Shown piece by piece: positions 3,011-35,078 of a stretch of DNA of 64,000 bases. Below the pieces are notes generated by a model, which worked only from the letters and a program-made list of their open reading frames with translations, was not told the origin of the DNA and searched no databases. Source of the DNA: Shigella virus Moo19; the sequence record MZ358387; one strand, 5' to 3'. Positions within the stretch are counted from its first letter, which is position 1. The number at the start of each line of letters is the position of its first letter. Both the position numbers and the translations under genes were made by a program.

Positions 3011-3013
3011 AAG

Positions 3014-3032
3014 ATTAGATAGTCAATCTAAT
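3014..3032. promoter_or_regulatory. Palindrome attagat-agtca-atctaat containing 14-mer ttagatagtcaatc (second copy at 3529-3542)
   Basis: 7-bp inverted repeat read directly; lies just after a terminator and upstream of ORF 3063. Confidence 0.4.
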
Positions 3033-3062
3033 TTGAATAAATAGTTAAAAGAGAATCCTACT

Positions 3063-3209
3063 ATGAGCAAACTAAAAAACGCATTTATCCTGATTGTCAG
3101 TATCCTTGCACTTGTTACTTTGGTTTCCGTTCACATTGGAAAACCTCTGGTAAACACTGACTATGGTAATGGTCAAAAAGTAAAATCCATCCTGTTAGCG
3201 GATAAGTAA
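3063..3209 (+). CDS. Small putative membrane protein (48 aa, MSKLKNAFILIVSILALVTLVSV...)
   Basis: Hand-translated; hydrophobic N-terminal segment; below the 60-aa cutoff of the ORF track. Confidence 0.3.
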   Translation: MSKLKNAFILIVSILALVTLVSVHIGKPLVNTDYGNGQKVKSILLADK

Positions 3210-3276
3210 AAACCGCATCTAGAAACTGGGCTGTTCCACAGCTTACGGATACATTTCAACCAATTAGGAGGCATCC

Positions 3277-3492
3277 ATGAACGTAGAAAATATCCGTATA
3301 ATTGAGAATTGCTTTGGTGATAAACCAGTAGACCTCAGCAACGCAAGAAGGTCTACAGATGAAGAATACAGAGAGTTTTTATCCTTACTCGATGAATATC
3401 ATATGCAAGGGCATGTTGAATTACATGCCCATCTGCATAACTCAGGCTACTTCATGGATAAACTGGAAGCTGAGACAGGCTGTCCATTCTAA
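3277..3492 (+). CDS. Hypothetical protein (71 aa)
   Basis: ORF track; strong RBS aggagg upstream. Confidence 0.45.
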   Translation: MNVENIRIIENCFGDKPVDLSNARRSTDEEYREFLSLLDEYHMQGHVELHAHLHNSGYFMDKLEAETGCPF

Positions 3493-3499
3493 GTAAAGC

Positions 3500-3526
3500 A
3501 TTCCCTCTTAGGAGGGAATTAGCCAT
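3500..3526 (+). terminator. Terminator-like hairpin (attccctc-ttag-gagggaat)
   Basis: 8-bp inverted repeat read directly; weak T tract. Confidence 0.4.
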
Positions 3527-5912: not shown

Positions 5913-6223
5913 CTACCATCGTAGTATTGCATGACACCACATTCAAAGATGTGGATAAGATGATGAACAATATAGACTATGTTGCTCAGCATTCTAAAGC
6001 ATTCAATGGGGAGTTCACTATTTATTGTGAACCAGAATCTCCATTGGCTCCTGTATTAAAAGAAGCAGGGCTTCCGTTCAGTACTACTGACTTCCCAGAA
6101 GAACCTGACTTCGTTATCTCATTCATCTACGATTTACACGACGGTTCTAAAGCCAGTGAACTGGCAATGAACCAGTGGAAGTCTCGCCGTCCTGTATGGC
6201 CTTTCCAGGTACTGAAACCATGA
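5909..6223 (+). CDS. Hypothetical protein (104 aa)
   Basis: ORF track; ATGA overlaps with neighbours. Confidence 0.4.
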   Translation: MTTIVVLHDTTFKDVDKMMNNIDYVAQHSKAFNGEFTIYCEPESPLAPVLKEAGLPFSTTDFPEEPDFVISFIYDLHDGSKASELAMNQWKSRRPVWPFQVLKP

Positions 6224-6600
6224 AGACTATCTCATTAGGTGACGATACCAATGCTTTGCTGGGTGTAGCTGCACGTCCAATCATCATTGTTAATAAACAT
6301 CATGGTAAACCGGGTGAGTATATTGGACGTGGTTCACCATTGGGTAATCCATACCCAATTGGTGATAAATACAACCGTCAACAAGCTATTGCTATGTATC
6401 GTGTCTGGCTGCAAGAACAGATTGATAAAGGTAATCCAGTTGTACTGGATGAACTTAATCGTCTGGGTAATAAAGCCATTGACGAAAAAGGACTGGCCTT
6501 ACAGTGCTTCTGTTATCCGAAACCATGTCATGGTGAGGTTATTAAAGAGAAGCTCGTAGAGGCTATGTACAACTACTTTGTGGAGAATCCAAATGAGTAA
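6220..6600 (+). CDS. DUF4326-like protein (GRGSPLGNPY ... CFCYPKPCHGEV)
   Basis: Motifs GNP and C-x-C-x-P-x-P-CHG recalled as DUF4326 signature; ATG 6220 overlaps upstream stop. Confidence 0.5.
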   Translation: MKTISLGDDTNALLGVAARPIIIVNKHHGKPGEYIGRGSPLGNPYPIGDKYNRQQAIAMYRVWLQEQIDKGNPVVLDELNRLGNKAIDEKGLALQCFCYPKPCHGEVIKEKLVEAMYNYFVENPNE

Positions 6601-6787: not shown

Positions 6788-7167
6788 AAGAAATATTCGT
6801 ATTCGGTTCTAATCTGGCTGGTGTACACGGTGCTGGTGCAGCTAAGACTGCATATAAGAAGCACGGTGCTCGTTGGGGTATGGGCGTAGGCCATTATGGT
6901 TGCAGCTATGCAATTCCAACTAAAGACCAGAACATCAAAACAATGGAGTTGGTTGATATCGCTGTATTTGTATCTGCCTTCATCCTGTATGCAGCAGCAC
7001 ACCCAGAGTGGGACTTCAAAGTAACACGAGTAGGTTGTGGGCTGGCTGGCCTGTCTGATAAAGACATGGCATTCATGTTCTTACCTGCAACAGGTAATGT
7101 CATGTTTGATGAAGCATGGAAACCTTATTTAGGTGATACCTATAACTACTGGGGTACATTCGAATGA
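6784..7167 (+). CDS. Gly-rich Rossmann-like motif protein (FVFGSNLAGVHGAGAAKTA...GCGLAGL); possible nucleotide-binding (SLOG/macro-like?)
   Basis: Motif only; family assignment uncertain. Confidence 0.35.
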   Translation: MKEIFVFGSNLAGVHGAGAAKTAYKKHGARWGMGVGHYGCSYAIPTKDQNIKTMELVDIAVFVSAFILYAAAHPEWDFKVTRVGCGLAGLSDKDMAFMFLPATGNVMFDEAWKPYLGDTYNYWGTFE

Positions 7168-7436
7168 CCTATGAAGAATTATGGGCTGCTCAAGTAAGAA
7201 GTAAGGCGAGAGCCTTTGCTCATGTCTACAGCACATTGCAGCATCTTATTAAAAGCAGAACCAAAGCTGGACATATACATGGTTACTACAAAGAAGATTG
7301 TATTCCCGATGGTGACTACCTATGGGATAAAAGAATCCGTCACGAGAGTGACATTATAAAAGTGAATATTGCTATTCATTCATACCCACCAAGGGGTAAT
7401 CGCTACCTATCTATTCACTTTTATACAAAGCGTTAG
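7164..7436 (+). CDS. Hypothetical protein (90 aa)
   Basis: ORF track. Confidence 0.4.
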   Translation: MTYEELWAAQVRSKARAFAHVYSTLQHLIKSRTKAGHIHGYYKEDCIPDGDYLWDKRIRHESDIIKVNIAIHSYPPRGNRYLSIHFYTKR

Positions 7437-7441
7437 GTAAT

Positions 7442-7460
7442 AGCTGCTCCGCAGCTTTTG
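7442..7460 (+). promoter_or_regulatory. Tri-loop hairpin agctgc-TCC-gcagct followed by TTTT; candidate vRNAP promoter hairpin or short terminator, 30 nt upstream of RNAP II genes
   Basis: Perfect 6-bp stem, TCC loop; same GC-TCC-GC core as 2596 and 3584. Confidence 0.35.
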
Positions 7461-7488
7461 GTCATTAATCATATTTAGGAGATATGCG

Positions 7489-8307
7489 ATGTACTCATCT
7501 ATTGAACATCAGAAGCAACTGGAAACTCTGTTTAACAAGAATCAACTAATTCCTCGTATGAGGAAAGAGTTCGAGGACTCCGAAGAAATCCAATTCACTA
7601 AGTATTTTGAGCATATTGGCATCGACCCCAAACTGGGTATTGATGCAATGGTGCAAATTGCTCTGCATAAACGTGCTGACATTCCTACTATGGTTGGCTC
7701 ACTCATGAGTCACAGTCAGGATGCTCAGTACATAGCAGACACTCTGCTTAAGATGGCAGAGCACGACTGCTTTGACTTCGACCCAAGTATCGATAAGTTC
7801 ATCGTCATCTATGAAATCAGTGATGATGTACAACTGGAACTGGAAGCATTCCAGTATCCACTGCCTATCGTCAGTGAACCGAGAGAGGTTAAAGATAACC
7901 GTGGCTCAGGTTACTGGAATACCAAAGGCAGTATCATCCTCAAGAAGAACCACCATGAAATGGATGTGTGTCTCGACCACATTAACCGTATGAACAATCA
8001 ACGACTCAGCATCAACTGGGACGTTGCCAAGTTCGTCAAAAACTCATGGGCTAACCTGGATAAACCTAAAGAAGGGGAATCCCGTCAGGACTTTCAGAAG
8101 CGTGTACGTGCATTCGAGAAATACGACCGTACAGCAAAAGACGTTATGGAACTGGTGACTAAAGAAGGTAACAACTTCTCACTTGACCATAAGTATGACA
8201 AGCGTGGACGCACCTACTCACAGGGCTACCACATTAACTATCAAGGTACTAGCTGGAATAAAGCTGTTATCGAGTTCGCTGATAAGGAGTTGGTAAACGA
8301 TGAGTAG
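7489..8307 (+). CDS. Phage RNA polymerase II small subunit (N4 gp15-like)
   Basis: 272 aa; lies upstream of a T7-like RNAP C-terminal-half homolog; N4-like organisation; strong RBS aggag. Confidence 0.55.
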   Translation: MYSSIEHQKQLETLFNKNQLIPRMRKEFEDSEEIQFTKYFEHIGIDPKLGIDAMVQIALHKRADIPTMVGSLMSHSQDAQYIADTLLKMAEHDCFDFDPSIDKFIVIYEISDDVQLELEAFQYPLPIVSEPREVKDNRGSGYWNTKGSIILKKNHHEMDVCLDHINRMNNQRLSINWDVAKFVKNSWANLDKPKEGESRQDFQKRVRAFEKYDRTAKDVMELVTKEGNNFSLDHKYDKRGRTYSQGYHINYQGTSWNKAVIEFADKELVNDE

Positions 8308-8587
8308 GAAAGAATTTAAAGCTATTGCTCAAACCAGTGGTGGTATGGGCACATTAGCACTAGGAGAAGACGGTACAGTACTGTACACGGCTTACGACGT
8401 ATTATCTGGCAAAACAGTAACAGTATGTCTGTTCTTTGATGTAAATACTTACATGTCACTGGAGAATGCTTTCTCAGATTTCAGCAATGTTATGCGTAAT
8501 CGTGACCAGAAAGCTGACTTAACTCCGGCTGACAAAGACTTCCAGGCAATCCTCAATGACCTGAAGAAACCAGGCAAACTTCATTAA
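8300..8587 (+). CDS. Hypothetical protein between the two RNAP II subunit genes
   Basis: ORF track. Confidence 0.4.
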   Translation: MSRKEFKAIAQTSGGMGTLALGEDGTVLYTAYDVLSGKTVTVCLFFDVNTYMSLENAFSDFSNVMRNRDQKADLTPADKDFQAILNDLKKPGKLH

Positions 8588-8636
8588 TTAACCCATATGC
8601 GTGTTCCATACAGGAACCAGATGCAGGAGTAATAAA

Positions 8637-9854
8637 ATGCAAACTTTTACCGCTAAACAGTACCTGGCTATCGATATCGCTAACAACTTTGGTCTGGATA
8701 AGAAGACCTGGGATGAGCGTTTGGCCTGGTTCGATGAGAACAAAGACAACCTCATGAACCAGTTAGAAGCAGCAGAGGAACCTGCTCTGTATTATGCAGG
8801 CGTTAAAGCCTATGAAGACATGCTGGCTGGTAAGCCTATTGGTTATACCATTGCACTGGATGCTACTGCATCTGGTCTGCAATTACTGGCATGTCTGACT
8901 GGTGACCGTAAGGCTGCTCAGTTGTGTAACGTAGTGAACTACTATGGTAGCGAAGGCAAGGCTCGTCGTAGCGATGCCTACACCGTTATCTACCGTACCA
9001 TGCTGGAAGCCGTAGGTCAGTCTTCTCGTGTTAAACGTGATGACTGTAAGCAGGCTGTAATGACTGCATTCTATGGCTCAGAAGCTAAGCCTAAAGAAGT
9101 GTTCGGTGAAGGTATTCTGTTGAAGACCTTTGAACACGTAATGGGTATCGAAGCACCTGGCCCGTGGGAACTGAACAAGTTCTATCTGCAATGTGGTAAC
9201 CCGGATGCAACCTCATATTTATGGGTTCTGCCGGATAACTTCCATTGTCAGATTAAGGTAATGGTTGACGAAGTACAGACCATTAACTTTATGAACAAGC
9301 CATATGACATCATTCGCAAAGTACAGGGTACTGAAGAGAAGACTCGTATGCTCTCTGCTAATACCACTCACTCAATTGATGGAATGGTAGTGCGTGAGAT
9401 GCTGCGTCGTTGTAACTATGATGCTGACCTGATTACCTATGTAAAACAGCTTTGCTATGGCGTACAGGAATCAAATGTATTCCTGCCAGAAAACGCTGAA
9501 ATGGTGCATGAGTTATGGAACCACTATGAACGTAGTGGTTTCCTGTCCATGCGTATCTGCGATTATCTGGATGCAGGCTCCATCGCTCTGGTTGACCGTC
9601 AGGTCATCCTTGAGATGCTGGAGACTCTGCCTAAGAAGCCATTCAAAGTACTGACTGTACATGACTGCTTCCGTTGCCATCCTAATTATGGCAATGACCT
9701 GCGTCGTCAATACAATCAGATTCTGTCTGACATTGCTAAATCCAACCTGCTGTCATTCATTCTGTCTCAGGTACTGGGACAAGAGTTCACTGCTGGTAAG
9801 CTGGACAATGACATGTGGAAAGATGTCTTAGACGCTGAGTACGCATTAAGCTAA
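8637..9854 (+). CDS. Phage RNA polymerase II large subunit, T7-like single-subunit RNAP catalytic half (N4 gp16-like)
   Basis: Motifs DATASGLQ (motif A-like), KQAVMTAFYGS (motif B-like), TVHDCF (motif C-like); ATG 8637 with aggag RBS (track ORF starts 8601). Confidence 0.75.
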   Translation: MQTFTAKQYLAIDIANNFGLDKKTWDERLAWFDENKDNLMNQLEAAEEPALYYAGVKAYEDMLAGKPIGYTIALDATASGLQLLACLTGDRKAAQLCNVVNYYGSEGKARRSDAYTVIYRTMLEAVGQSSRVKRDDCKQAVMTAFYGSEAKPKEVFGEGILLKTFEHVMGIEAPGPWELNKFYLQCGNPDATSYLWVLPDNFHCQIKVMVDEVQTINFMNKPYDIIRKVQGTEEKTRMLSANTTHSIDGMVVREMLRRCNYDADLITYVKQLCYGVQESNVFLPENAEMVHELWNHYERSGFLSMRICDYLDAGSIALVDRQVILEMLETLPKKPFKVLTVHDCFRCHPNYGNDLRRQYNQILSDIAKSNLLSFILSQVLGQEFTAGKLDNDMWKDVLDAEYALS

Positions 9855-9857
9855 TAT

Positions 9858-9895
9858 GAGCCTCATACCTTCGGGTATGGGGCTTATTTTTTTCG
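9858..9895 (+). terminator. Rho-independent terminator (catacc-ttcg-ggtatg extended, then ttattttttt)
   Basis: Read directly. Confidence 0.6.
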
Positions 9896-9911
9896 AATTG
9901 AGGACACAACT

Positions 9912-10733
9912 ATGCCTGAGTTAAAAGTTGCTTTTAACAAAGACACCTATGTAGCTACCGTACTGGATGCCAGTGGTAGCGTTCCGAGTGGTTCTGTGAA
10001 CGTAGGTACTTTCTTCCATCCTGATGAGACTTACCCTGATAGTTATGTTATCTATCATGGTGTTCGTGAACTCCTGTATAAGCGTTCTGAAGTTGACCCG
10101 GCACAACCAGGCTTCTGGCCTGAGAACATTACCAACATGCAAGCTGTTACCATCGATAACAAGGCTACTGCACGTCTGGTACTGAATACCTCCCTACCTC
10201 GTGTAGTATCTACCATCGAAGGTGGTAAGGTTACTCTGTCTGTTGTTGCTCTGGGTGGTAAGGCTCCTCTTAAATACAAGTGGGAGTTCCGTGCACCTAA
10301 TGCTTCAACCTGGACTGCTGTATCTGGGCAGACTACTGCTAATCTGGTTCTGGATAATATCGATGCTGATAAAGCAGGTGAGTATAAAGTCACCGTTACC
10401 GATGCTGCCGGAACCAGTGTAGATAGTACTGCTCTGGTAGCTGTGGGTGCTTATCCACCACCAGCACTGACGGGCATTAAGGCTACGCCTACTTCCCTGT
10501 CTCTGTCTGTAGCTACTGACGCTGCTGGTAAAACTGTAGCTCTGTCTGCTATCCCGACTGATGCTGAACTGGGTACATTGTCTATTAAGACTGCTCCAGA
10601 TTCTGCTCGTGCTACTGCTACTATTTCTGGTTCTACTCTGACTGTTAAACCAGTGGCTGCTGGTGCTGCAACTTCTGTTGTAGTAACCAACGGTAAAGTT
10701 GATGTGACTATCACTATCAACGTTGCAGCATAA
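9912..10733 (+). CDS. Ig-like domain protein; probable capsid decoration protein (N4 gp17-like)
   Basis: Ig-like sequence features (GEYKVTVTDAAG; Big_2-like C-terminal repeats); position after RNAP II genes. Confidence 0.5.
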   Translation: MPELKVAFNKDTYVATVLDASGSVPSGSVNVGTFFHPDETYPDSYVIYHGVRELLYKRSEVDPAQPGFWPENITNMQAVTIDNKATARLVLNTSLPRVVSTIEGGKVTLSVVALGGKAPLKYKWEFRAPNASTWTAVSGQTTANLVLDNIDADKAGEYKVTVTDAAGTSVDSTALVAVGAYPPPALTGIKATPTSLSLSVATDAAGKTVALSAIPTDAELGTLSIKTAPDSARATATISGSTLTVKPVAAGAATSVVVTNGKVDVTITINVAA

Positions 10734-11417: not shown

Positions 11418-12246
11418 ATTTATTATAGGTTGTTTACTGGCAATAGTTGCAATGGCTAGTCTTACTGGTTGTTATCAACGAGTAGAGCCAGGTAATGTAG
11501 GTATTATCGTTAACCGTTTGGGTGACGATAAGGGCGTTGACCAACAAGTAAAAGGCGTAGGCCGTTACTGGATTGGTTGGAATGAAGACCTGTATACGTT
11601 CCCGACATTCAAACAGATGAAAACCTACGACGATAAGTTTTACTTCCAACTGTCGGACGGTACTCAAATTGGCCATCAACTGGCTATCAGCTATAAGGTC
11701 AACCCGACCAAAGTAGCGACCATCTTCCAGACCTACCGTAAAGGTGTCGATGAAATCACTGACCAGGATTTACGTCAGCGTATTGCCGATATCCTGAACC
11801 GTCAGGGTAACCTGATTAACACTGACAAGTTCATTGACGGTGGTAAGTCACGTTTGCTGGATAGTGTAGCTGATGCAGTTAAAAAAGAGATGGAGCCAGT
11901 CGGTATCGACATTATGGCTATCTCCTGGGTAGGTGCACCGGAATACCCGGACAACGTGAAGCGTGCAATTAACGCGAAAGTTGAAGCTACCCAGAAAACC
12001 CTGCAACGTGAGCAAGAAGTGCAACAGCGTATCGCTGAAGCAAATATGGCTCGTGAGCAAGCCAAAGGTGAAGCTGATGCCGTAGTACTGAAAGCAAAAG
12101 CAGAAGCTGATGCTATTAAGCTGCGTGGTGATGCACTTCGTGAAAACCCTGGTGTAATGGAACTGGAAGCAATCAACAAGTGGAATGGTGTATTACCAAC
12201 CACAATGATTCCAGGTGCAGCCACACCATTTGTGCCTGTTAAATAA
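11410..12246 (+). CDS. SPFH/band-7 (prohibitin/HflC-like) lipoprotein
   Basis: Lipobox LTGC after signal peptide; SPFH-like core and C-terminal coiled-coil; ATG 11410 with ggaag RBS. Confidence 0.65.
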   Translation: MRKFIIGCLLAIVAMASLTGCYQRVEPGNVGIIVNRLGDDKGVDQQVKGVGRYWIGWNEDLYTFPTFKQMKTYDDKFYFQLSDGTQIGHQLAISYKVNPTKVATIFQTYRKGVDEITDQDLRQRIADILNRQGNLINTDKFIDGGKSRLLDSVADAVKKEMEPVGIDIMAISWVGAPEYPDNVKRAINAKVEATQKTLQREQEVQQRIAEANMAREQAKGEADAVVLKAKAEADAIKLRGDALRENPGVMELEAINKWNGVLPTTMIPGAATPFVPVK

Positions 12247-12252
12247 CAATAA

Positions 12253-12282
12253 AACCCCCAGACATTGCTGGGGGTTTTTACG
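12253..12282 (+). terminator. Rho-independent terminator (aaccccca-loop-tgggggtt + T tract)
   Basis: Read directly. Confidence 0.7.
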
Positions 12283-12295
12283 TCTGGAAAGTGTA

Positions 12296-12646
12296 ATGGA
12301 AAAGAACCGCAGGAAGACACTCATTGAGCGTCTGCTTGCCCGTATCAAGATAATGGATATGGGCTATACCGTTAATGGTCAGCCAAGCCTATGCCACATC
12401 TGGACTGGTTCCCACTCTGGGAATGGTCGAGGTGGTCAATATGGCAGGATTTCCGTGAATGGAGTTACCTCTGCTACACATATTGTGGCCTATACCCACT
12501 ATCACGGTTACATCCCTTGCAAAATGCAGGTAGACCATCTCTGTAATAACCGTCTGTGCTGTAACCCGGAACATCTCGAACTGGTGACTCACCAAGAGAA
12601 CCAGAGAAGAAGAGCTGCACGCCAAACTAAAGGTAAAAAGAAATGA
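12296..12646 (+). CDS. HNH homing endonuclease (HNH_3 type)
   Basis: Motifs CHIWTGS...GYI...VDHLCNNRLCCNPEHL...HQEN; ATG 12296 downstream of terminator. Confidence 0.7.
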   Translation: MEKNRRKTLIERLLARIKIMDMGYTVNGQPSLCHIWTGSHSGNGRGGQYGRISVNGVTSATHIVAYTHYHGYIPCKMQVDHLCNNRLCCNPEHLELVTHQENQRRRAARQTKGKKK

Positions 12647-14802: not shown

Positions 14803-15975
14803 ATGAACCAGATACCTCAGCACACTTTGACCGACGAGCAACTCATGCGAGAGTATGACCGTACTCAGGCTCAGGCTTTTCTGGGCAAGAGTGCTGCGTT
14901 CTTTGGCTCACTACTGTGTAGTCTTAAATTCTCCTGGCAACGGGAGAATTGCGATACCGCTCAGACCGATGGTACTGAGCTTCAGTTTAACCCTGACTTC
15001 TTTGTCTGGTTAAAGCCTGAAACAAGAAAGACCGTGCTTATGCACGAGCTTTGGCATGTAGGTTATCTGCATGGTGTCCGTCAGGGTTCTCGTGACCCAG
15101 AGTTCTGGAACTATGCCTGTGACATCTACATTAACAACCAGTTAGAAGACGACGGCTACTCCTTCGAGGGAGTAGAGAACTGCTGGAAAGACCCAAAATA
15201 TAAAGGTTGGGTCGAAGAGGATATTTACGATGACCTTATGAAGAATCCCCACAAGAAGCCGAAGGCATTGGGGGCATTTGGAACAGGGTCTGGTGGAGAT
15301 ATGGTTAGCCCCACTTCGGGTTCATCTCCTGCAACTATCGTCAACAACGTAGTACGTGCACTGCAACAACAAAAACTGGCTGGTGGCACACTAGCTGGTA
15401 CTGGTGCAGGCCGTATGCAAGAGGTGATTACCCAATTCCTCAAGCCAGTAGTTCCGTGGCAGCAAGTCCTGTTCGACTTCTTCACTGACATTGATGACAC
15501 CAAGTACACCTGGGCAAGACCTAATCGTCGTTACCCGGATATGTACCTGCCATCTCTGGAAGATGATGAAGGTCGCTTACGACATCTGGCCTATTTCGAG
15601 GATGTCTCTGGTTCCATTAGCAATGCTGACTCTCTGCGTTTTAACTCAGAAGTGGCCTATGTTAAGAGCCAGTTTAATCCGAAGAAAATGACCCTACTCA
15701 CTTTCGATACTGTTATTCAGGACGAAATCGATATCACCGAAGAGGATACCTTTGAGGAGATTAAGATTACAGGCCGTGGAGGTACTTGCCTCAAGCCTGT
15801 TCGTGAGTGGATTATCAAGAACAAGCCAACTGCTGCTATCATCTTCTCTGATATGCACGTTGCACCTATGGAAGAACTCCCGTTTGATATACCTATCATC
15901 TGGGTTTGTTTGGGAAACCGACATGCCACCGTGCCTTTCGGTGAAATCTTACATATTGACCCAGGAATGAAATAA
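14803..15975 (+). CDS. VWA domain protein with N-terminal metallopeptidase-like HExxH (DUF2201-like)
   Basis: MIDAS-like DVSGSIS; HELWHVGYLH; typical partner of MoxR ATPases. Confidence 0.7.
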   Translation: MNQIPQHTLTDEQLMREYDRTQAQAFLGKSAAFFGSLLCSLKFSWQRENCDTAQTDGTELQFNPDFFVWLKPETRKTVLMHELWHVGYLHGVRQGSRDPEFWNYACDIYINNQLEDDGYSFEGVENCWKDPKYKGWVEEDIYDDLMKNPHKKPKALGAFGTGSGGDMVSPTSGSSPATIVNNVVRALQQQKLAGGTLAGTGAGRMQEVITQFLKPVVPWQQVLFDFFTDIDDTKYTWARPNRRYPDMYLPSLEDDEGRLRHLAYFEDVSGSISNADSLRFNSEVAYVKSQFNPKKMTLLTFDTVIQDEIDITEEDTFEEIKITGRGGTCLKPVREWIIKNKPTAAIIFSDMHVAPMEELPFDIPIIWVCLGNRHATVPFGEILHIDPGMK

Positions 15976-27467: not shown

Positions 27468-30047
27468 ATGCGTCATATCGTATCCCATGATTCCGGCAAG
27501 TATCCTATTGCCATTCTGTCTACCCGACTCAACAGGGAAGACATGATAAAAACCTATCTGCACCCCGACCAGTTATCTATGGAAGATTTTATCTTCCTGG
27601 AACTGCATTCTGCACCGGGTAAAAAGAAAACTCCTGCCAAGGAAATGAAGGAGTTTATTCAGTCAGAGTTGCAGCAAGTGCTCGACACTGCTGAGACTAA
27701 GTACGTTATCTGTACTGACTCTGACTACTTTAAGGTGCTGACTAAGGAAACTAAAGCTGAAGCCAACTTAGGCTACATCGTTGATTCCATCTGGGGTGAC
27801 CAGAAAGTTATCTATGTGCCTAACTACAGACAGGTCTTTTATGACCCACCTGTGGTTAAGGCCAAGATTAAACAAGGGATGGATGCTTTACTCAACCATA
27901 TCCGGGGGCAGTATGCTGAACCAGGACAAGGAATAATTGAGTTTGAAGCCTATCCCCGTACTAACCAGGAAATCAAAGCATGGCTTGACCAGTTGCTTGA
28001 GATGAATAAGCCATTGGCAATAGACATCGAAGCATTCGGTTTAAAGCACTATAACGCAGGCATAGGAACGATTACGTTCTGCTGGAGTAAGACACAGGGC
28101 ATTGCCTTCAACGTCGATTACGAGCCGATTGTAGGGGCTACACAGCCACCTTACGGACGAGTTAACCGTAACGACATTGTTCGTAACCTGTTACGTGACT
28201 TCTTCATGAAGTACATGCAACGGCAGATATATCACAATATCAGCTATGACGTGTATGTCCTCATCTATCAGTTGTTCATGGACAACCTGATTGATACAGG
28301 AGGACTGCTTGACGGCATGGACGTAATGCTTCGTAACTGGGACTGTACAAAACTGATTACCTATCTGGCTACAAATAGCTGTGCTGGTAATCACCTTAGC
28401 TTGAAGGAACAAGCTCAAGAATACGCTGGTAACTATGCTCAGGATGACATTAAAGACATCTGTCAGATTCCTAATGACCAACTGCTGCGTTACAACCTCA
28501 TAGATGGTCTATGTACCTGGTACACCTATGAGAAGCACTGGGATACTCTGGTAGCTGATGACCAACTGGATGTTTACAACAACATCTTTAAGCCAGCATG
28601 TGAGGATATTATTCAGATGCAGCTTACGGGTATGCCCATGAACATGGACACCGTAAATGAAGTTGCAACTGAGATGGAACAAGACCGGAACCGGGCAATG
28701 AAGACTATCCAGAGTAGCACTCTGGTTAAGAACTTCACCCTGCATCTTCGTCAGAAGTGGGTAGACGAAAAGAATCAGAAGCTGAAAAAGAAACGAGTAA
28801 CACTGGCTGATTGTAACCTTGAGTTTAATCCAAACTCTGGGCCACAACTGCAAGATTTGTTATTCGAATTCATAGGCTTACCTGTATTAGGTCTGACTAA
28901 GAGCAAGCAACCTGCTACCGATGGTGACACCATTAAAGCTCTACGAAGTCACACCAAAAATGACGACGTTAAGGAACTGCTCAATGCACTTATCGACTAT
29001 AAGCTTGTGGATAAGATTATCACTAGCTTCATCCCAGCCTTCCGTAATGCTCAGCCAGGGCCAGATGGATGGCACTACTTATTCGGCAACCTCAACCTTG
29101 GGGGAACTGTATCTGGACGGCTGTCGGCAAGCGAGCCTAACCTTCAGACAATACCATCTGGTTCGAAATATGCTAAGGCAATAAAACGTTGCTTCCAAGC
29201 ACCACCGGGATGGATATTCTGTGGATTAGACTTTGCCTCACTGGAGGACAGAATCTCTGCACTGACTACGAAAGACCCTCAGAAACTTAAGGTATATACC
29301 GATGGTTACGATGGTCATAGTCTTCGTGCATATGCTTACTTCGGTGAGCAAATGCCCGACATCGTAGACACAGTTGAGTCAATTAATTCCATTCAAGAGA
29401 AGTACAAACACTTGCGTGGTGACTCTAAAGCCCCAACATTCTTGCTTACTTATGGTGGCACGTATATGGGCTTGATGAAAAACTGTGGATTCTCGGAAGA
29501 GAAAGCTAAGACAACAGAGAAACGTTATCACGACCTCTATACGGTCAGTGATGCGTGGGTACAGGCTAAGCTGGACGAAGCTGCCAAAACTGGTTATGTT
29601 ACTGCCGCATTCGGTTTGAGAGTGCGTACTCCTTTACTGGCTCAGGTATTACGTGGGACATGTAAGACTCCGTATGAGGCAGAAGCTGAAGGCCGAACTG
29701 CTGGTAATGCTTTAGGGCAAAGCTGGTGTCTGCTTAATAACCGTGCTGGTTCAGAGTTCATGCGTAAAGTCAGAACCAGTGAGTTCAGGCTGGATATCCG
29801 ACCGAGTATTCATATTCATGATGCTCAGTACTTCATGATTCGTGACAACATGGACACGTTGCAGTTTACCAACAAGCACCTCGTTGATGCAGTTAACTGG
29901 CAGAATCACCCGGATATTGCCCATCCAGATGTTGGTCTGGGTGGAGAGCTATCTTTATTCTACCCAACGTGGGCTAACGAGATTGTCATTCCAAATCACG
30001 CTACCCCGGAAGAAGTTCATTCAACAATTCAAAAGGCATTTTCATGA
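27468..30047 (+). CDS. Family A DNA polymerase with 3'-5' exonuclease domain
   Basis: Exo I LAIDIEAFG; pol motif A GLDFASLEDR, motif B KAPTFLLTYGG, motif C IHIHDAQY. Confidence 0.85.
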   Translation: MRHIVSHDSGKYPIAILSTRLNREDMIKTYLHPDQLSMEDFIFLELHSAPGKKKTPAKEMKEFIQSELQQVLDTAETKYVICTDSDYFKVLTKETKAEANLGYIVDSIWGDQKVIYVPNYRQVFYDPPVVKAKIKQGMDALLNHIRGQYAEPGQGIIEFEAYPRTNQEIKAWLDQLLEMNKPLAIDIEAFGLKHYNAGIGTITFCWSKTQGIAFNVDYEPIVGATQPPYGRVNRNDIVRNLLRDFFMKYMQRQIYHNISYDVYVLIYQLFMDNLIDTGGLLDGMDVMLRNWDCTKLITYLATNSCAGNHLSLKEQAQEYAGNYAQDDIKDICQIPNDQLLRYNLIDGLCTWYTYEKHWDTLVADDQLDVYNNIFKPACEDIIQMQLTGMPMNMDTVNEVATEMEQDRNRAMKTIQSSTLVKNFTLHLRQKWVDEKNQKLKKKRVTLADCNLEFNPNSGPQLQDLLFEFIGLPVLGLTKSKQPATDGDTIKALRSHTKNDDVKELLNALIDYKLVDKIITSFIPAFRNAQPGPDGWHYLFGNLNLGGTVSGRLSASEPNLQTIPSGSKYAKAIKRCFQAPPGWIFCGLDFASLEDRISALTTKDPQKLKVYTDGYDGHSLRAYAYFGEQMPDIVDTVESINSIQEKYKHLRGDSKAPTFLLTYGGTYMGLMKNCGFSEEKAKTTEKRYHDLYTVSDAWVQAKLDEAAKTGYVTAAFGLRVRTPLLAQVLRGTCKTPYEAEAEGRTAGNALGQSWCLLNNRAGSEFMRKVRTSEFRLDIRPSIHIHDAQYFMIRDNMDTLQFTNKHLVDAVNWQNHPDIAHPDVGLGGELSLFYPTWANEIVIPNHATPEEVHSTIQKAFS

Positions 30048-30355
30048 CCAAAGAAACCCAAAAAGAAGATAAAGCCATGCACCACTGGATGGTATCTGCA
30101 CAGGTTGTATTTACCAACAAAGATGCCAGTGATGGTGGCGTACTTCCAATGAATGCCATTCTGCTGACCGAGCAACAGTATGTTAACGCTGCTTCTCTGG
30201 CACAGGCTCAACGTACTCTGACAGCAAATACGATGGAACGTATGCAAGCCCCAGATATGGGTATTGTTGATATCGTATTTATGGGTATCAGCTATCTGGG
30301 TCACATGACTCAGGCAGGCTTCAACCCGGATAACTCAGTTAAGCCGGGGGTCTGA
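30044..30355 (+). CDS. Hypothetical protein (103 aa)
   Basis: ORF track. Confidence 0.4.
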   Translation: MTKETQKEDKAMHHWMVSAQVVFTNKDASDGGVLPMNAILLTEQQYVNAASLAQAQRTLTANTMERMQAPDMGIVDIVFMGISYLGHMTQAGFNPDNSVKPGV

Positions 30356-30356
30356 T

Positions 30357-30635
30357 ATGACTAAGCTCTCCGGTGGTCTTAATAACTGGTATGTAGTACC
30401 AGTAAAAAATCCCCAACGGAAAGAGCAAGAGCCATATCAGGCAGAGTGTGAGGATATTATCCAGGCACTGGGCATGACCTTCGATGAAGGTTGTGCCTTT
30501 AAAGCCTTATGGCGAAATGCTGCTGCTCGTATGGGTAATGGTAAACCAGGCAACACTGCTGTTTACGATGCTCAAAAAATGGTGCATTACACCACTCGTG
30601 TATTGAATAAGGAGTTAGCTGATGAAGATAACTAA
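30357..30635 (+). CDS. Hypothetical protein (92 aa)
   Basis: ORF track. Confidence 0.4.
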   Translation: MTKLSGGLNNWYVVPVKNPQRKEQEPYQAECEDIIQALGMTFDEGCAFKALWRNAAARMGNGKPGNTAVYDAQKMVHYTTRVLNKELADEDN

Positions 30636-31602
30636 TGAACATGACGTAAGTCTGGCCTTAGCTGTCTGGCTCCTGTACGACGAATATGACTATGTGGATA
30701 ATCCGAAGTATCTTTCGGCTACCACACTGCTTAAACCACTTAAGCAGATTGTCATGAAGCACCGTGTTGACTTCAGCAATGAGTCAATCGATGTGATGGA
30801 CTTTGCTCAGGCTTCGATGGGTACTGGTTTACACGACTCTATCGAGAAAGCATGGAAGTTAGGCCATAAGTCTGCACTCAAGAAACTGGGATACCCAGAC
30901 CGTGTTGTTAATGCTGTAGTCATTAACCCTACCAAAGAAGATTTCGATAAGAACCCGAATTTAATTCCGGTGTATATCGAACGTCGTGGAACCAAGAACC
31001 TCAGAGGCTGGCTCATTGGGGGTAAGTTCGACATTGTAACAGAAGGTCTGTTGCAGGACTTTAAGTCCACCTCAACCTATTCCTGGGTTGCAGGTTCCCG
31101 TGACGACGAACATAAAATGCAAGGTAGCATCTACCGTTGGATTCACGATGATGTAATCACAGAGGATGTGATTCGCATTAACTACATTTTTACCGACTTC
31201 GTTAAGTACATGGCAGCAAATAATCCGAAGTATCCTGCCCGTCGCATTATGCACAAAGATATTCCGTTGCTGTCTTACGAACGTACTGAAGCCTGGCTAA
31301 ATGAAAAGCTACAGCTTATTGAGAAGTACTGGGATGCTCCTGAAAGTGAAATCCCTGAGTGTACTGACGAAGAGCTGTGGCGAACTGAGCCACAGTTTAA
31401 GTATTTTTCTGACCCAACAAAGGTAGATGTACCCGGAGCGAGAAGTACTAAGAACTTTGATGACATGATTTCTGCTCGCAAATTCATGGCTGAAAAAGGT
31501 GGTAAGGGTGCAATCAAAGTAGTCGAGGGACAAGTTAAACGCTGCGAGTATTGTGCCGTAGCACCTATTTGTAAACAAAGAGAGAGATATTTCCCATCAT
31601 GA
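30622..31602 (+). CDS. Putative PD-(D/E)XK exonuclease with Cas4-like C-terminal Cys cluster
   Basis: GGKFDIV...DFKST core-like motif; C-terminal CEYCAVAPIC (C-x2-C-x5-C). Confidence 0.5.
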   Translation: MKITNEHDVSLALAVWLLYDEYDYVDNPKYLSATTLLKPLKQIVMKHRVDFSNESIDVMDFAQASMGTGLHDSIEKAWKLGHKSALKKLGYPDRVVNAVVINPTKEDFDKNPNLIPVYIERRGTKNLRGWLIGGKFDIVTEGLLQDFKSTSTYSWVAGSRDDEHKMQGSIYRWIHDDVITEDVIRINYIFTDFVKYMAANNPKYPARRIMHKDIPLLSYERTEAWLNEKLQLIEKYWDAPESEIPECTDEELWRTEPQFKYFSDPTKVDVPGARSTKNFDDMISARKFMAEKGGKGAIKVVEGQVKRCEYCAVAPICKQRERYFPS

Positions 31603-32114
31603 GTAAGCTGACTCAGCAACGGCTGAAAGAGTTGCTGCATTATGACCCATTAACTGGGATATTCACTCGCCGCATTTCTTTAAGCAACCGCACACCAGTA
31701 GGTAGCGTTGCTGGGTCACTTAATAAAAGTGACGGCTACGTCTACATAACTGTTGATTCAATACGTGAATCTGCACATAGATTGGCTTGGTTGTATGAAA
31801 AAGGTGTTTGGCCTAAAGGTCTTATAGACCATAGGGATACAATACGTCATCACAACTGGATAGCAAATTTAAGGGAAGCAGATAAAAGTACTAATGGTGC
31901 TAACCGTGGACTGAATATAAACAACACCACTGGTTTTATGGGTGTTGCAAAATTCAGAAAGGGATACCGAGCAGCAATAAAGGTAAACCATAAATCATAT
32001 TTTTTAGGCGTGTTTCCAAAGGCAAACGATGCAGCAAAAGTCTATGACCAAGCAGCTATTGAACACTTTGGTGAATTTGCTGTCACTAACATGAGTTTAG
32101 GATTAATTACATGA
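31599..32114 (+). CDS. HNH homing endonuclease with AP2-like DNA-binding domain
   Basis: HNH_3-like region (SAHRLAWL...IDHRD...NLR) and AP2-like region (GFMGVAKFRKGYRAAIKV...YDQAA). Confidence 0.7.
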   Translation: MSKLTQQRLKELLHYDPLTGIFTRRISLSNRTPVGSVAGSLNKSDGYVYITVDSIRESAHRLAWLYEKGVWPKGLIDHRDTIRHHNWIANLREADKSTNGANRGLNINNTTGFMGVAKFRKGYRAAIKVNHKSYFLGVFPKANDAAKVYDQAAIEHFGEFAVTNMSLGLIT

Positions 32115-34267
32115 GTATCGACCTTACTGGTATAAGCCACCATCCTGCAATTGAAGAAATTGTGGATGTGTTGTGTAACAAGACACAAAATAACGACCGG
32201 GGGTTCTTCCGTGTCGAAGTAGCTTACTTCCTGGCTAAAATGGCATCCTGTATGGGTGCAACCATCGTCACTAAAGACCGTGGTGACCTGCCAGTAAACA
32301 TCTATGCTATGGCGTTAGCTACGTCTGGCTTCGGTAAAGGTCACTCGGTAAATATCATTGAAGATGGGTTCATGTCTGGATTCCGTAAACGTTTTATGGA
32401 AGACACCATGCCCGTCATCTCTAACGACCGTCTATGGCGTATTGCCAATGACCGTTCTGCAAGGAATGGTACTGACCAACAGGAAGAGTTTGATAAAGTT
32501 GAAGCTGAGTATAAACGTGCTGGTGCATATCCATTTACGTTTGACTCAGGTACTCCACCAGCAGTTAAGCAATTACGCCATAAACTGTTAATGGCTGGCT
32601 GTGGTTCTATCAACCTACAGATTGACGAAATTGGTTCCAACTTGTTAGCCAACGTCGATGTGCTGAATCTGTTCCTGGAGTTATATGACCAGGGTAAGGT
32701 TAAGCAGAAGCTGACCAAGAACACTGCCGAGAGCCAGCGAGGTGAGGAACTGGACGGTAAGACTCCAACTAATCTGCTGCTTTTTGGTACGCCAAGTAAA
32801 CTGCTGGATGGTGGTCAGACCGAAGACCAGTACTATGACTTCCTGGACACTGGTTACGCACGTCGTTGTATCTTTGCTATCGGTCAAGTTGACCGTAAAG
32901 CCTATAACACAATGACTCCTGAAGAAATCTACCATAACCTGACTAAGCAGGATAATACGGCATCGTTAAGTAAGTGGGCTAATAAGTTTCACGACTTAGC
33001 TGACCCAAATTTATTCGGCTTTAAGATGGTAGTAGAAGACGATGTAGGTATTGCCCTGATTGCTTATAAAATTGACTGTGAAAGACAAGCTGAAGCTATG
33101 GCTGACCACGAAGAAATTCGTAAAGCTGAAATCTCTCACCGTTACTTTAAAGCACTCAAACTGGCTGGTGCATTGGCCTTTGTTGACCAAAGTTCATTTA
33201 TTGAAATGGGTCACTTACAGCAAGCCATTCTGTTAGTAGAAGAGTCTGGTGCAGCATTCCAAACAATTCTGAATCGTGAGAAAGCTTACGTTAAGCTGGC
33301 TCGTTACATTGCCTCTGTAGGCAAGGAAGTAACTCACGCAGATTTGCTGGAGTCATTGCCATTCTATAAGAGTGGTAATGCAGCTCGTAATGAGATGATG
33401 ACCCTTGCTACTGCATGGGGCTACAAACAGCACATTATTATTAAGAAGACCTTCAACGAAGGAATTGAGTTCTTCCGTGGGGAAACTCTGAAAGAAACCA
33501 ATACTGATGAAATGGTAATCGCCTACAGTGATAACTTTGCTTATAACTACATTGGCGAAAAAGTACCATTCGACCAGCTTCATGTGCTGACCCAGCATGA
33601 GGGTATGCACTGGATTAACCACCACGTTAAGAACGGTCATCGTTCTGAAGAAAACGTTATCGCTGGCTTTAACATGATTGTTATTGACTGTGATGGTGGC
33701 ATTCCACTGAATACGTGCCATGAACTGATGAAAGATTATAAGTTCATGACGTATACCACCAAACGTCACACAGATGACGAAAACCGTTTCCGTCTCATTC
33801 TGCCAATGAACTACCAACTCGAACTGGACACAGAAGAGTACAAGGAGTTCATGAATAACGTTATGGCCTGGCTCCCGTTTGATACGGATGAATCAGCCAA
33901 CCAACGTGCTAAGAAATGGATGTCTTGTGAGACAGGAACGTATCACTACAACCTTGAAGCTCCACTTCTGGATGTACGTGATTTCATTCCTCGAACCAGT
34001 AAGAACGAGCAATTCCGTCAGCATATGCAACAGGTTCAATCATTGGATAACCTGGAACGTTGGTTTGCTGGGCGTATTGCCTCTGGCAACCGTAACAACC
34101 AGATGATTAAGTATGCCCTGGCTCTCGTAGACAGTGGCTGGGACTTTAATCAGGTTCATAAGTCAGTGATGGAATTTAACAAGAAATTGTCTAATCCATT
34201 GCCAGACGATGAACTTAACTCAACTGTTATGGTCACTGTAGCGAAGAAATTCGCAGGCAGTAAGTAA
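32111..34267 (+). CDS. Putative DNA primase / replication protein
   Basis: Size and position in replication module; possible primase-like acidic motif IVIDCDGG; weak. Confidence 0.4.
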   Translation: MSIDLTGISHHPAIEEIVDVLCNKTQNNDRGFFRVEVAYFLAKMASCMGATIVTKDRGDLPVNIYAMALATSGFGKGHSVNIIEDGFMSGFRKRFMEDTMPVISNDRLWRIANDRSARNGTDQQEEFDKVEAEYKRAGAYPFTFDSGTPPAVKQLRHKLLMAGCGSINLQIDEIGSNLLANVDVLNLFLELYDQGKVKQKLTKNTAESQRGEELDGKTPTNLLLFGTPSKLLDGGQTEDQYYDFLDTGYARRCIFAIGQVDRKAYNTMTPEEIYHNLTKQDNTASLSKWANKFHDLADPNLFGFKMVVEDDVGIALIAYKIDCERQAEAMADHEEIRKAEISHRYFKALKLAGALAFVDQSSFIEMGHLQQAILLVEESGAAFQTILNREKAYVKLARYIASVGKEVTHADLLESLPFYKSGNAARNEMMTLATAWGYKQHIIIKKTFNEGIEFFRGETLKETNTDEMVIAYSDNFAYNYIGEKVPFDQLHVLTQHEGMHWINHHVKNGHRSEENVIAGFNMIVIDCDGGIPLNTCHELMKDYKFMTYTTKRHTDDENRFRLILPMNYQLELDTEEYKEFMNNVMAWLPFDTDESANQRAKKWMSCETGTYHYNLEAPLLDVRDFIPRTSKNEQFRQHMQQVQSLDNLERWFAGRIASGNRNNQMIKYALALVDSGWDFNQVHKSVMEFNKKLSNPLPDDELNSTVMVTVAKKFAGSK

Positions 34268-34273
34268 GAAACC

Positions 34274-34303
34274 GGGAGTCTTTCTTTGGTTTGAAGGACT
34301 CCC
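34274..34303. promoter_or_regulatory. Inverted repeat gggagtc ... gactccc with 16-nt loop, intergenic
   Basis: Read directly; no T tract. Confidence 0.3.
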
Positions 34304-34322
34304 AATTAACCGAGGAAAAGTA

Positions 34323-35078
34323 ATGTCCGAAGAATTAGTCGCCAATGACATGAACACACAATTGATTCTGATTGCTGGGTTCTCTGCGAGTGGTAAATCA
34401 GCGTCACTCCGTAACTTACGGAACCAAGAACGCTGGTTGTATCTGAATACCGAAGCAGGTAAACGTCTGCCATTCCGTAACAAGTTTCAGTCCTACAACA
34501 TCGAAGACCCGTATCAAATCTGGGAAGCGTTCGATGCTGCATCACCTGGTGGTGATATGGCTAATGACATTGATGGCATCATCATTGACTCAGCCACATT
34601 TATGATGGATATGCTGGAATCCCAGTATGTACTTCCATCAGCAAACACCCAGAAAGCCTGGGGGGACTTTGCTCAGTTCTTCAAAATTCTGCTTCAGCAG
34701 AAGGTTGTTAAGTTTGGTAAGCCAGTGATTATCACGGCTCATGCCAAAGACGAACTGGACGAAGCAGCAGGTATCATGAAGACGTTCATTCCAGTGAAAG
34801 GTTCGCTGAAGAATAACGGCCTGGAAGCATACTTCTCAACTGTCGTTTACGCAGAGCGTGTAGACATTAAGGAACTAGAGAAGTATGGCAATAAGATGCT
34901 GGAGATTACGGAAGAAGAACGTGACTTAGGTTATAAACACGTATTCCAGACTCGCCCGACTAAGAAATCTGTCGGTAAGCGTCTTCGTTCACCAATGGGT
35001 ATGTTCGAGAAGTCAGAGACTTATATCGATAACGATGCCCAGAAACTGCTCGACCACCTGGCTGAATACTACGCTTAA
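34323..35078 (+). CDS. RecA-fold P-loop ATPase (Sak4/AAA_24-like)
   Basis: Walker A GFSASGKS; acidic DSAT motif; position next to SSB. Confidence 0.45.
   Translation: MSEELVANDMNTQLILIAGFSASGKSASLRNLRNQERWLYLNTEAGKRLPFRNKFQSYNIEDPYQIWEAFDAASPGGDMANDIDGIIIDSATFMMDMLESQYVLPSANTQKAWGDFAQFFKILLQQKVVKFGKPVIITAHAKDELDEAAGIMKTFIPVKGSLKNNGLEAYFSTVVYAERVDIKELEKYGNKMLEITEEERDLGYKHVFQTRPTKKSVGKRLRSPMGMFEKSETYIDNDAQKLLDHLAEYYA

Follow-up and report, generated by a model that had tools for sequence, protein, structure and literature searches.

Free-standing homing endonuclease genes (HEGs) that combine an HNH catalytic domain with an AP2 DNA-binding domain are common in lytic phages. We describe here gp58 of the N4-like podophage Shigella virus Moo19. 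This virus belongs to the Schitoviridae, phages of which are employed in therapy work against Shigella and E. coli. The gene lies between those for an exonuclease and a DNA primase (31599–32114, + strand) in the stretch of 64,000 nucleotides (nt) of record MZ358387 that was analyzed (the window, to which positions refer unless another genome is named). Very probably, gp58 is a free-standing, currently mobile HEG, joining an I-HmuI-like HNH domain to a C-terminal AP2 domain.

A close parallel is MobE of phage T4, whose free-standing HNH gene separates nrdA from nrdB. In the mobE-less phage T2 this enzyme nicks nrdB within its 5′ end, and mobE+ and mobE– phages are polymorphic at the nicked position (PMC2790892). 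Like mobE, gp58 is an HNH gene set between two conserved DNA-metabolism genes and reliant on upstream expression signals, and in both systems the 5′ end of the downstream gene differs between genomes with and without the HEG, the target there being a predicted one for gp58. The likeness is one of description, and the module with which MobE binds DNA is not termed AP2 in its source (PMC2790892). The MobE nick falls at nrdB nt 122–126, whereas the gp58-linked patch covers primase nt 15–30; MobE activity was mapped in vivo, whereas that of gp58 is predicted.

I-HmuI of phage SPO1 is a nicking endonuclease whose coding sequence lies in a group I intron that interrupts a DNA polymerase gene; its C-terminal DNA-binding region is of the helix-turn-helix kind. 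By profile alignment, gp58 has the DH...NN...NLR...N motif in common with I-HmuI (PDB 1u3e); unlike it, gp58 is free-standing (Rfam finds no intron at 30000–34500) and carries an AP2 domain. ‘HNH-AP2’ is also an established HEG category in T4-related genomes, such as those of RB49, RB43, RB16 and JSE (PMC2993671, Table 5). These enzymes have the two-domain architecture of gp58, but in other genomes and at other sites. We know of no mapped target for any HNH-AP2 HEG of T4-related phages.

Nearer relatives occur in N4-like phages. The HNH proteins of the Gamaleyavirus phages G7C, Bp4 and ECBP1 have the same architecture and 49% amino acid (aa) identity to gp58, and are encoded in the same replication module; unlike gp58, however, their genes are inserted one gene upstream, at the gp41/exonuclease junction. 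The type represented by EC1-UPM gp47 and U1G gp54 does occupy the junction of gp58, with an HNH_3 match, a weak AP2 match and linked changes in primase codons 6–9. Yet its identity to gp58 is only ~33% (aa, for a part of the protein), the boundaries of the insert are displaced by a few nt and, unlike at the gp58 insertion, the exonuclease has lost one codon and the primase its Ser2 codon.

gp58 already bears the annotation HNH (homing) endonuclease in Moo19, as do its homologues in PhAPEC5, ZQ2 and others, and is an uncharacterised member of this group; the paper on Moo19 makes no mention of this gene (PMC11654681). What we add is a predicted target or immunity patch, evidence for the recent transfer of one variant (A2) between genera, and the sharing of a single junction by several HNH-AP2 lineages.

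The gp58 protein and its insertion site

The 171-aa gp58 matched ‘HNH endonuclease [Shigella virus Moo19]’ (YP_010657780.1) at 100% identity. Pfam HNH_3 (PF13392; E = 1.5e-9; 37.8 bits, cutoff 24.8) aligned with its residues 59–100, a catalytic domain of the beta-beta-alpha-metal type encoded at 31773–31898 (+), and it falls into phrog_99, ‘HNH endonuclease’ (E = 5.6e-61), with 719 homologues at E ≤ 1e-10. Across 66 aligned homologues, H78, N86, R92 and N102 were invariant, and D77, N90, N99 and H60 were at least 90% conserved. The residues expected of the family are thus in place, with H78, which follows D77, as predicted general base and N86, N90, N99 and N102 as predicted metal-binding or structural asparagines. 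When the profile of this alignment was searched against the PDB, its DH..N..NLR..N motif aligned to I-HmuI (E = 4.9e-6) and its C-terminal third to the plant AP2 domains of WRI1 (8.8e-12) and TEM1 (1.9e-6).

An AlphaFold2 model of gp58 (mean pLDDT 95.3) matched I-HmuI and plant AP2 domains. The predicted fold resembles that of the solved HNH homing endonuclease, and the C-terminal DNA-binding domain (residues ~110–165; 31926–32093, +) is modeled as a three-stranded antiparallel beta-sheet packed against a single helix and can be superposed on solved AP2 domains. The HNH-AP2 label that a preliminary description of the locus had attached to gp58 thus stands at the level of both profile and structure. 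Pfam AP2 itself (PF00847) gave no match on gp58 even at E ≤ 10, so that the AP2 question was settled by the structure model and the profile-versus-PDB searches. In relatives the Pfam AP2 match is sub-threshold (Bp4 orf42, 1.5e-3; EC1-UPM gp47, 5e-5), and many more distant homologues carry PF13392 together with a precomputed PF00847. NCBIfam yielded nothing useful for the exonuclease, gp58 or the primase.

The ratio of non-synonymous to synonymous substitution rates (dN/dS) between gp58 variants was 0.10–0.14, which implies that gp58 is selected as a working protein, albeit under weaker constraint than its neighbors (0.01–0.08). The GC content across the gp58 open reading frame (ORF) was 39%, versus 43–47% in most flanking windows. 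Taken with the HNH_3 and phrog_99 matches, the homologues and the model, these data identify the ORF as a real gene, not a chance one.

In the ORF listing, gp58 and its two neighbors are co-directional. Upstream is the Moo19 exonuclease (30622–31602, +; 326 aa), of the N4 gp42 type and PD-(D/E)XK/RecB-like, whose stop overlaps the start of gp58. Downstream is gp59 (32111–34267, +; 718 aa), a DNA primase of the N4 gp43 type and the probable target gene. Its earlier label of putative primase is borne out by phrog_2135 ‘DNA primase’ (1226 bits), by a PriCT_1 match (E = 8e-8) and by relatives in which the gene is annotated as N4 gp43. Both gp58 boundaries are 4-nt ATGA stop/start overlaps (31599–31602 and 32111–32114), so the ORFs lie and interlock exactly as first described.

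These overlaps are each preceded by a putative ribosome-binding signal. The left junction (31580–31602, +) contains the purine-rich, Shine-Dalgarno-like GAGAGAGA at 31580–31587 and the first ATGA. This GAGAGAGA...ATGA is the primase translation start region in HEG-less relatives and is used by the HEG in Moo19; the 30 nt 5′ of the ATGA are essentially alike in genomes with (HEG+) and without (HEG–) the gene. At the right junction (32098–32114, +), a TAGGA Shine-Dalgarno motif (32098–32102), which the HEG contributes from its 3′ end, stands 8 nt before the primase ATG. All genomes with a HEG of the gp58 lineage (HEG-A) keep the sequence ‘taggatta’ ahead of this ATG, and empty sites lack it. Insertion also rewires translation: the HEG takes over the primase’s original start, and the primase receives from the HEG’s 3′ end another Shine-Dalgarno sequence and ATGA. 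No + strand sigma-70-like promoter was found before gp58.

Two other views of the insert were considered and rejected. An association with an intron found no backing, as Rfam gave no group I or II intron at 30000–34500 and gp58 is a separate ORF between complete genes. The sole Rfam match, to DicF RNA inside the primase gene (33694–33774, –), was sub-threshold (24.4 bits, where the gathering score is 48; E = 0.037) and is most likely due to chance. A 7-bp target-site duplication, ATGAGTA, seemed to flank the insert in Moo19, but only ATGA(G) is left of it in ZQ2, L040 and L046 (L numbers denote the loci compared). The repeat stems from the two ATGA start/stop overlaps and is no conserved duplication.

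Occupancy of the junction and movement of the gene

Among 33 loci from close relatives, 12 had an HNH gene at the exonuclease/primase junction and 21 were empty, counts that are not phylogenetically independent. HEG-A was found in ZQ2, PhAPEC5, PBM-2, UE-M6 and several metagenomic contigs, with 59–89% aa identity to gp58. All located homologues in this identity range sat at the exonuclease/primase junction, in increasingly distant N4-like contigs, including phages whose exonuclease is only 48–58% identical. Other HNH-AP2 lineages take the same place in the EC1-UPM gp47/U1G gp54 type and as a 172-aa gene in L042, and the 49%-identical paralogue of G7C, Bp4 and ECBP1 sits between gp41 and exonuclease.

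The empty state was seen in Jgk1, HK2, pSb-1, St11Ph5, G7C, Bp4, F22, Bas96, Moonfish, nithesis, PE007, UE-S5a, VTCCBPA_322 and three IMG/VR contigs, as well as in five Moo19-level contigs (L038, L039 and L043–45) with 94–97% identical flanks. At such junctions, the exonuclease stop overlaps the primase start directly (...CCATC ATGA GTATTGACC...). The sequence reads CCATC-ATGAGTAT-TGACC in HK2, pSb-1, St11Ph5, Jgk1 and others, and ...CCCATCATGAGTATTGACCTGACTGGAGTCACTCATCAC... in the L043 type. The sister species DSF2 (PV699627), 94% identical to Moo19 at the nt level, adds a further empty case, read from its published ORF table and not from sequence: an exonuclease at 7122–8102 (99.4% aa) is followed by a gp59 homologue at 8099–10255 (99.0% aa), with no HNH gene between them (PMC13153029). 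For orientation, in the phage collection, Moo19’s own record aside, Jgk1 was the closest genome (~82% nt), followed by Gamaleyavirus phages (~80%).

The preliminary description had taken gp58 for an insertion within the replication module, a view that an HNH gene at this place in all relatives would have contradicted. With 21 of the 33 loci and the DSF2 table showing no such gene, the insertion is polymorphic, not fixed. The module around it comprises a Dda-like helicase, a DNA polymerase (27468–30047), gp40 and gp41 homologues, the gp42-type exonuclease, the gp43-type primase, a Sak4-like ATPase (34323–35078) and a single-stranded DNA-binding protein. Judging from these genomes, gp58 is dispensable for phage replication, because it is absent from relatives whose flanking genes are 94–99% identical.

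This bears on the idea that gp58 has been domesticated, either as a replication or recombination accessory working with the exonuclease, the primase and the Sak4-like annealing protein, or as a non-specific degrader of host or competitor DNA. Its place inside the replication operon, its translational coupling to the exonuclease and the purifying selection on it would all suit such a role. Against it stand the dispensability just noted, the replacement of gp58 by other HNH-AP2 lineages at the exonuclease/primase junction, and the close linkage of gp58 to 16 nt of the neighboring gene (a patch described below), which fits a site-specific HEG and not a general nuclease. We regard domestication as very improbable.

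Evidence for movement came from comparing the HEG with its flanks. L037 is a Moo19-like and L010 a Gamaleyavirus-like genome; their HEGs are 98.6% identical (nt), whereas the exonuclease genes are 79% and the primase genes 82% identical. The reverse holds for Moo19 and L037 (HEG 81%, exonuclease 96%, primase 95%) and for L010 and ZQ2 (HEG 77.5%, exonuclease 96.5%, primase 91%). Synonymous divergence (dS) gives the same picture, with 0.018 in the HEG versus 1.2–1.4 in the flanks for L037 and L010, and 0.92 versus 0.19–0.24 for Moo19 and L037. Sequences of HEG-A fall into three variants: A1 in Moo19 and L046; A2 in L037, L040, L041, L010 and L011; A3 in ZQ2, PhAPEC5, PBM-2 and UE-M6. The mobility of the gene is thus well backed by HEG and flank histories that are incongruent in both directions, meaning that at least three variants circulate independently of the host genomes, always landing at the same site. 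For A2, the near-identity across dissimilar genomes is direct evidence, at the sequence level, of a recent transfer between phage genera.

Could gp58 nevertheless be a decaying or inactive relic, inherited vertically and repeatedly lost, its patchy distribution arising by deletions and ordinary homologous recombination and not by homing? A1 is rare and about equally distant (79–81% nt) from all other variants, in distant N4-like contigs the divergence of the HEG roughly tracks that of the flanks, and ATGAG repeats at both ends could permit precise deletion. The catalytic residues, however, are all intact and the dN/dS values are low; and such a history sits badly with an A2 gene 98.6% identical across genomes with 79–82% identical flanks. 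The empty junctions point the same way: simple deletion would be expected to leave behind the T-G-I-S version of the primase patch, yet 0 of 21 keep it, and all read T-G-V-(T/V), as do the distant HEG-less phages L023 and L024. On this evidence a relic is improbable, if somewhat less so than a domesticated enzyme, and we retain the view of gp58 as a mobile HEG.

Several observations concern individual members of the set. The loci of the EC1-UPM type are L004 3514–4002 (EC1-UPM gp47), L008 2948–3385 (U1G gp54) and L035 1552–2028 (PGN829.1). In PGN829.1 the stretch is a 478-bp unannotated gap, and the U1G ORF is C-terminally shortened to 145 aa; these two copies may be decaying. The 172-aa HNH-AP2 gene of L042 (2486–3004), in a Moo19-level contig with 94–95% identical flanks, is 54% identical to gp58 (nt). 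It overlaps and rewrites the last exonuclease codons, has the same 3′ end as gp58 (..LGLF*, taggattatttga) and is followed by the same TGIS primase patch; it could be a replacement or a chimeric cassette. The upstream paralogue was located at L003 2049–2546 (Bp4) and L022 ~3013–3501 (G7C), and occurs also in ECBP1, PD38, PW8 and Mimir124; the window lacks it.

L037 (GCA_026132285.1, JANDFC010000012.1; 74,785 bp) is a complete-length Moo19-like genome found as a contig in a Salmonella enterica assembly, and its primase is named as a Salmonella protein (WP_265323745.1). Its presence there suggests that the assembly was contaminated or carried the phage, or else that phages of this group have Salmonella as a host. 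It has an extra 153-aa ORF (5961–6422) between the Sak4-like gene and the next gene.

The patch at the 5′ end of the primase gene

In the exonuclease and primase genes of ten Moo19-level genomes (3134 aligned positions, 383 of them variable), eight positions had alleles that were disjoint between HEG+ and HEG– genomes. Primase nt 15, 21, 22, 24, 26 and 30 account for six of these and fall within a patch spanning window positions 32125–32140 (+; codons 5–10), which we take as the putative recognition or cleavage region, in a form predicted to be resistant in HEG+ genomes. Codons 5–10 read CTT ACT GGT ATA AGC CAC (L-T-G-I-S-H) in Moo19 and CTT ACT GGy ATm AGy CAC, with the same translation, in genomes with HEG-A or the L042 gene, UE-M6 having GAC at the glycine codon. 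Every empty junction has CTK/CTA ACy GGA GTC ACT CAy or CTT ACC GGA GTA GTG CAy instead (L-T-G-V-T/V-H), the TGVV allele being that of G7C and St11Ph5. Thus the patch allele was present in 12/12 HEG-A/C loci and 0/21 empty loci, with the same phylogenetic dependence among loci as above.

Codons 7–9 are the most variable of the first 50 primase codons and, with codon 12, the only ones having amino acid polymorphism. The HEG+ alleles occur on at least three downstream primase haplotypes, each common to HEG-less genomes too; the linked tract must therefore be very short. At larger distances, the HEG-less phages L023 and L024 keep IDLTGVTHH, whereas the HEG-A genomes L012, L015 and L016 all deviate there. 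The association also held in a prediction test. From primase residues 8–9 in the 90% identity cluster of Moo19, we predicted, before any of the contigs were viewed, an HNH gene upstream of TGIS and none upstream of TGVT; the HEG state was correct for 6/6 primase variants, covering ten loci. Finally, the EC1-UPM-type lineage (EC1-UPM, U1G and PGN829.1) shows four consecutive synonymous third-position changes in the same stretch (ACA GGk GTA ACC).

From these patterns we infer that the cleavage target would lie at primase nt 15–30. Upon co-infection with a HEG-less relative, the AP2 domain would bind the unmodified primase 5′ end (...GAC CTG ACy GGA GTC ACT CAy...) and the HNH domain would nick or cut nearby. 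Recombinational repair from the HEG+ genome could then transfer to the recipient the HEG and, with it, a short patch (V8I/T9S and synonymous changes) that is predicted to be resistant and would protect the carrier from self-cleavage.

The patch might have a different meaning, either compensating for the new upstream sequence (mRNA structure, primase initiation) or being neutral donor sequence, with the cleavage site at the junction itself or elsewhere. It lies within or beside the ribosome-protected region of the primase start, and insertion of the HEG already disrupts any site spanning the junction. However, when RNA folding of native and patch-swapped primase starts was compared in silico for three HEG variants, the changes in folding energy (≤ ~3 kcal/mol) and in the accessibility of the Shine-Dalgarno sequence and start (≤ ~0.15) had no consistent direction, and translational compensation was rejected as an explanation. 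Neutral or compensatory sequence also accords poorly with two amino acid changes in an otherwise invariant N-terminus, with conservation of the patch across HEG lineages 20–45% diverged, and with the alteration of the same codons by different, purely synonymous changes in the EC1-UPM-type lineage. We consider this account unlikely on balance, while granting it real weight beside that of a resistant target site.

Some facts weigh against gp58 as a homing enzyme directed at this patch, beyond the dependence among loci and the failure of the Pfam AP2 model noted above. Variant A1 was found only in Moo19 and one 1.4-kb contig (85% nt); given this rarity, recent movement is demonstrated for A2, not for A1 itself. 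A sliding 100-nt identity comparison of Moo19 with HEG+ and HEG– relatives revealed no long co-conversion tract, the sole HEG-linked signal in the flanks being the 16-nt patch. The patch could, moreover, be sequence that always travels with the cassette and not an immunity determinant. The endonuclease activity of gp58, its action by nick or double-strand break and the position of its target are likewise predictions drawn from sequence.

A wider picture can be proposed tentatively, at somewhat less than even chances. In N4-like phages (Moovirus, Gamaleyavirus and Schitoviridae at larger distances), the exonuclease/primase boundary may be a contested homing hot spot, where at least three HNH-AP2 lineages (HEG-A with its variants A1/A2/A3, the L042 type and the EC1-UPM type) appear to aim at the same ~16-nt primase stretch. 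Its alleles (TGVT, TGVV, TGIS and the synonymous recodings) would record an arms race, and the HEGs, beyond their selfish spread, would serve as interference weapons between co-infecting genera.

The locus offers a testable system in the Schitoviridae, with Moo19 as donor, natural recipients whose flanks are 94–99% identical and a predicted 16-nt patch in an essential gene. gp58 is a candidate sequence-specific HNH-AP2 enzyme with mappable specificity, and its study bears on recombination boundaries made by HEGs and on marker exclusion when related therapeutic phages share a cocktail.

One member of the Moo19 primase cluster, P0126, is 730 aa long instead of 718, owing to a 12-residue replacement or insertion (..KRNNLVAGKDKDGNDIIGPDRFRL.. 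versus ..KRHTDDENRFRL.. in the other members).

Neighboring genes and other variable sites

The upstream exonuclease had been described as a Cas4-like PD-(D/E)XK enzyme, an assignment that holds in part. The protein matched phrog_2139, exonuclease (E = 2e-145), and phrog_1706, ‘CRISPR/Cas system associated’ (E = 5.7e-10). Nine orthologues have in common the invariant residues D137, D146-F-K148, Q167..Y171, C247 and C308-x2-C311-x5-C317, so that motifs and family membership agree with the description. Pfam PDDEXK_1, on the other hand, was sub-threshold in the window exonuclease (E = 2.4e-3, 18.3 versus 22 bits), although 6/9 orthologues matched it (best 1.4e-6), and sequence and profile searches of the PDB gave no significant match. 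All four cysteines, including the C-terminal CX2CX5C cluster, are C-terminal to the nuclease core, whereas in Cas4 the first cysteine is N-terminal to it. ‘Cas4-like’ is thus plausible from the sequence, but not rigorously established.

Inside the exonuclease gene, ~200 nt 5′ of the HEG, is a terminator-like hairpin (31372–31398, +) with a 10-bp stem and a T-rich tail. It was rejected as a HEG-specific terminator, being kept in HEG– relatives too.

Directly 5′ of the exonuclease gene, and overlapping its start in the window, is a gp41-like ORF (30357–30635, +) whose length varies among relatives. It encodes 92–94 aa in Moo19, ZQ2, HK2, L037 and L043, and 155–165 aa in PhAPEC5, St11Ph5, L038, L044 and L045. 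In DSF2 it reaches 218 aa (PMC13153029). The shared part is linked by PHROGs to the C-terminus of 3′-phosphatase/5′-polynucleotide kinase families. This ORF is a second variable spot of the replication module.

In calling gp58 the second HNH gene of this DNA, the preliminary description was correct, since among the window ORFs tested 12215–12646 (+) is the sole other recognizable one. It has a GTG start and encodes 143 aa, with matches to HNH_3 (E = 9e-19) and zf-His_Me_endon (E = 1.6e-6). A paralogous relation to gp58 was considered and rejected, as the two have no BLASTP similarity and this gene is of a different, HNH_3/zf-His_Me type. The ORF at 14803–15975 (+; 390 aa) is, by Pfam, DUF2201 metallopeptidase-like and VWA-like. 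At the matching position, upstream of dCTP deaminase, the DSF2 table lists an ORF with ‘HNH endonuclease [Shigella virus Moo19]’ as best match, a label that is probably an annotation or table slip.

The DNA polymerase gene of the window is one intact ORF of 859 aa (27468–30047). In Bp4, PhAPEC5, U1G and L010 the gene is split by an insertion (L003/L005/L008 1–1199; L010 1–1955), which carries another HNH gene in PhAPEC5, U1G and L010 and is called an ‘intron’ in the PhAPEC5 record. A few genes downstream of the primase, where the window has no HNH gene, L043 contains the start of a 165-aa HNH_3 + AP2 gene (8108–8157); the phage group thus seems to have a further variable HEG site at this spot.

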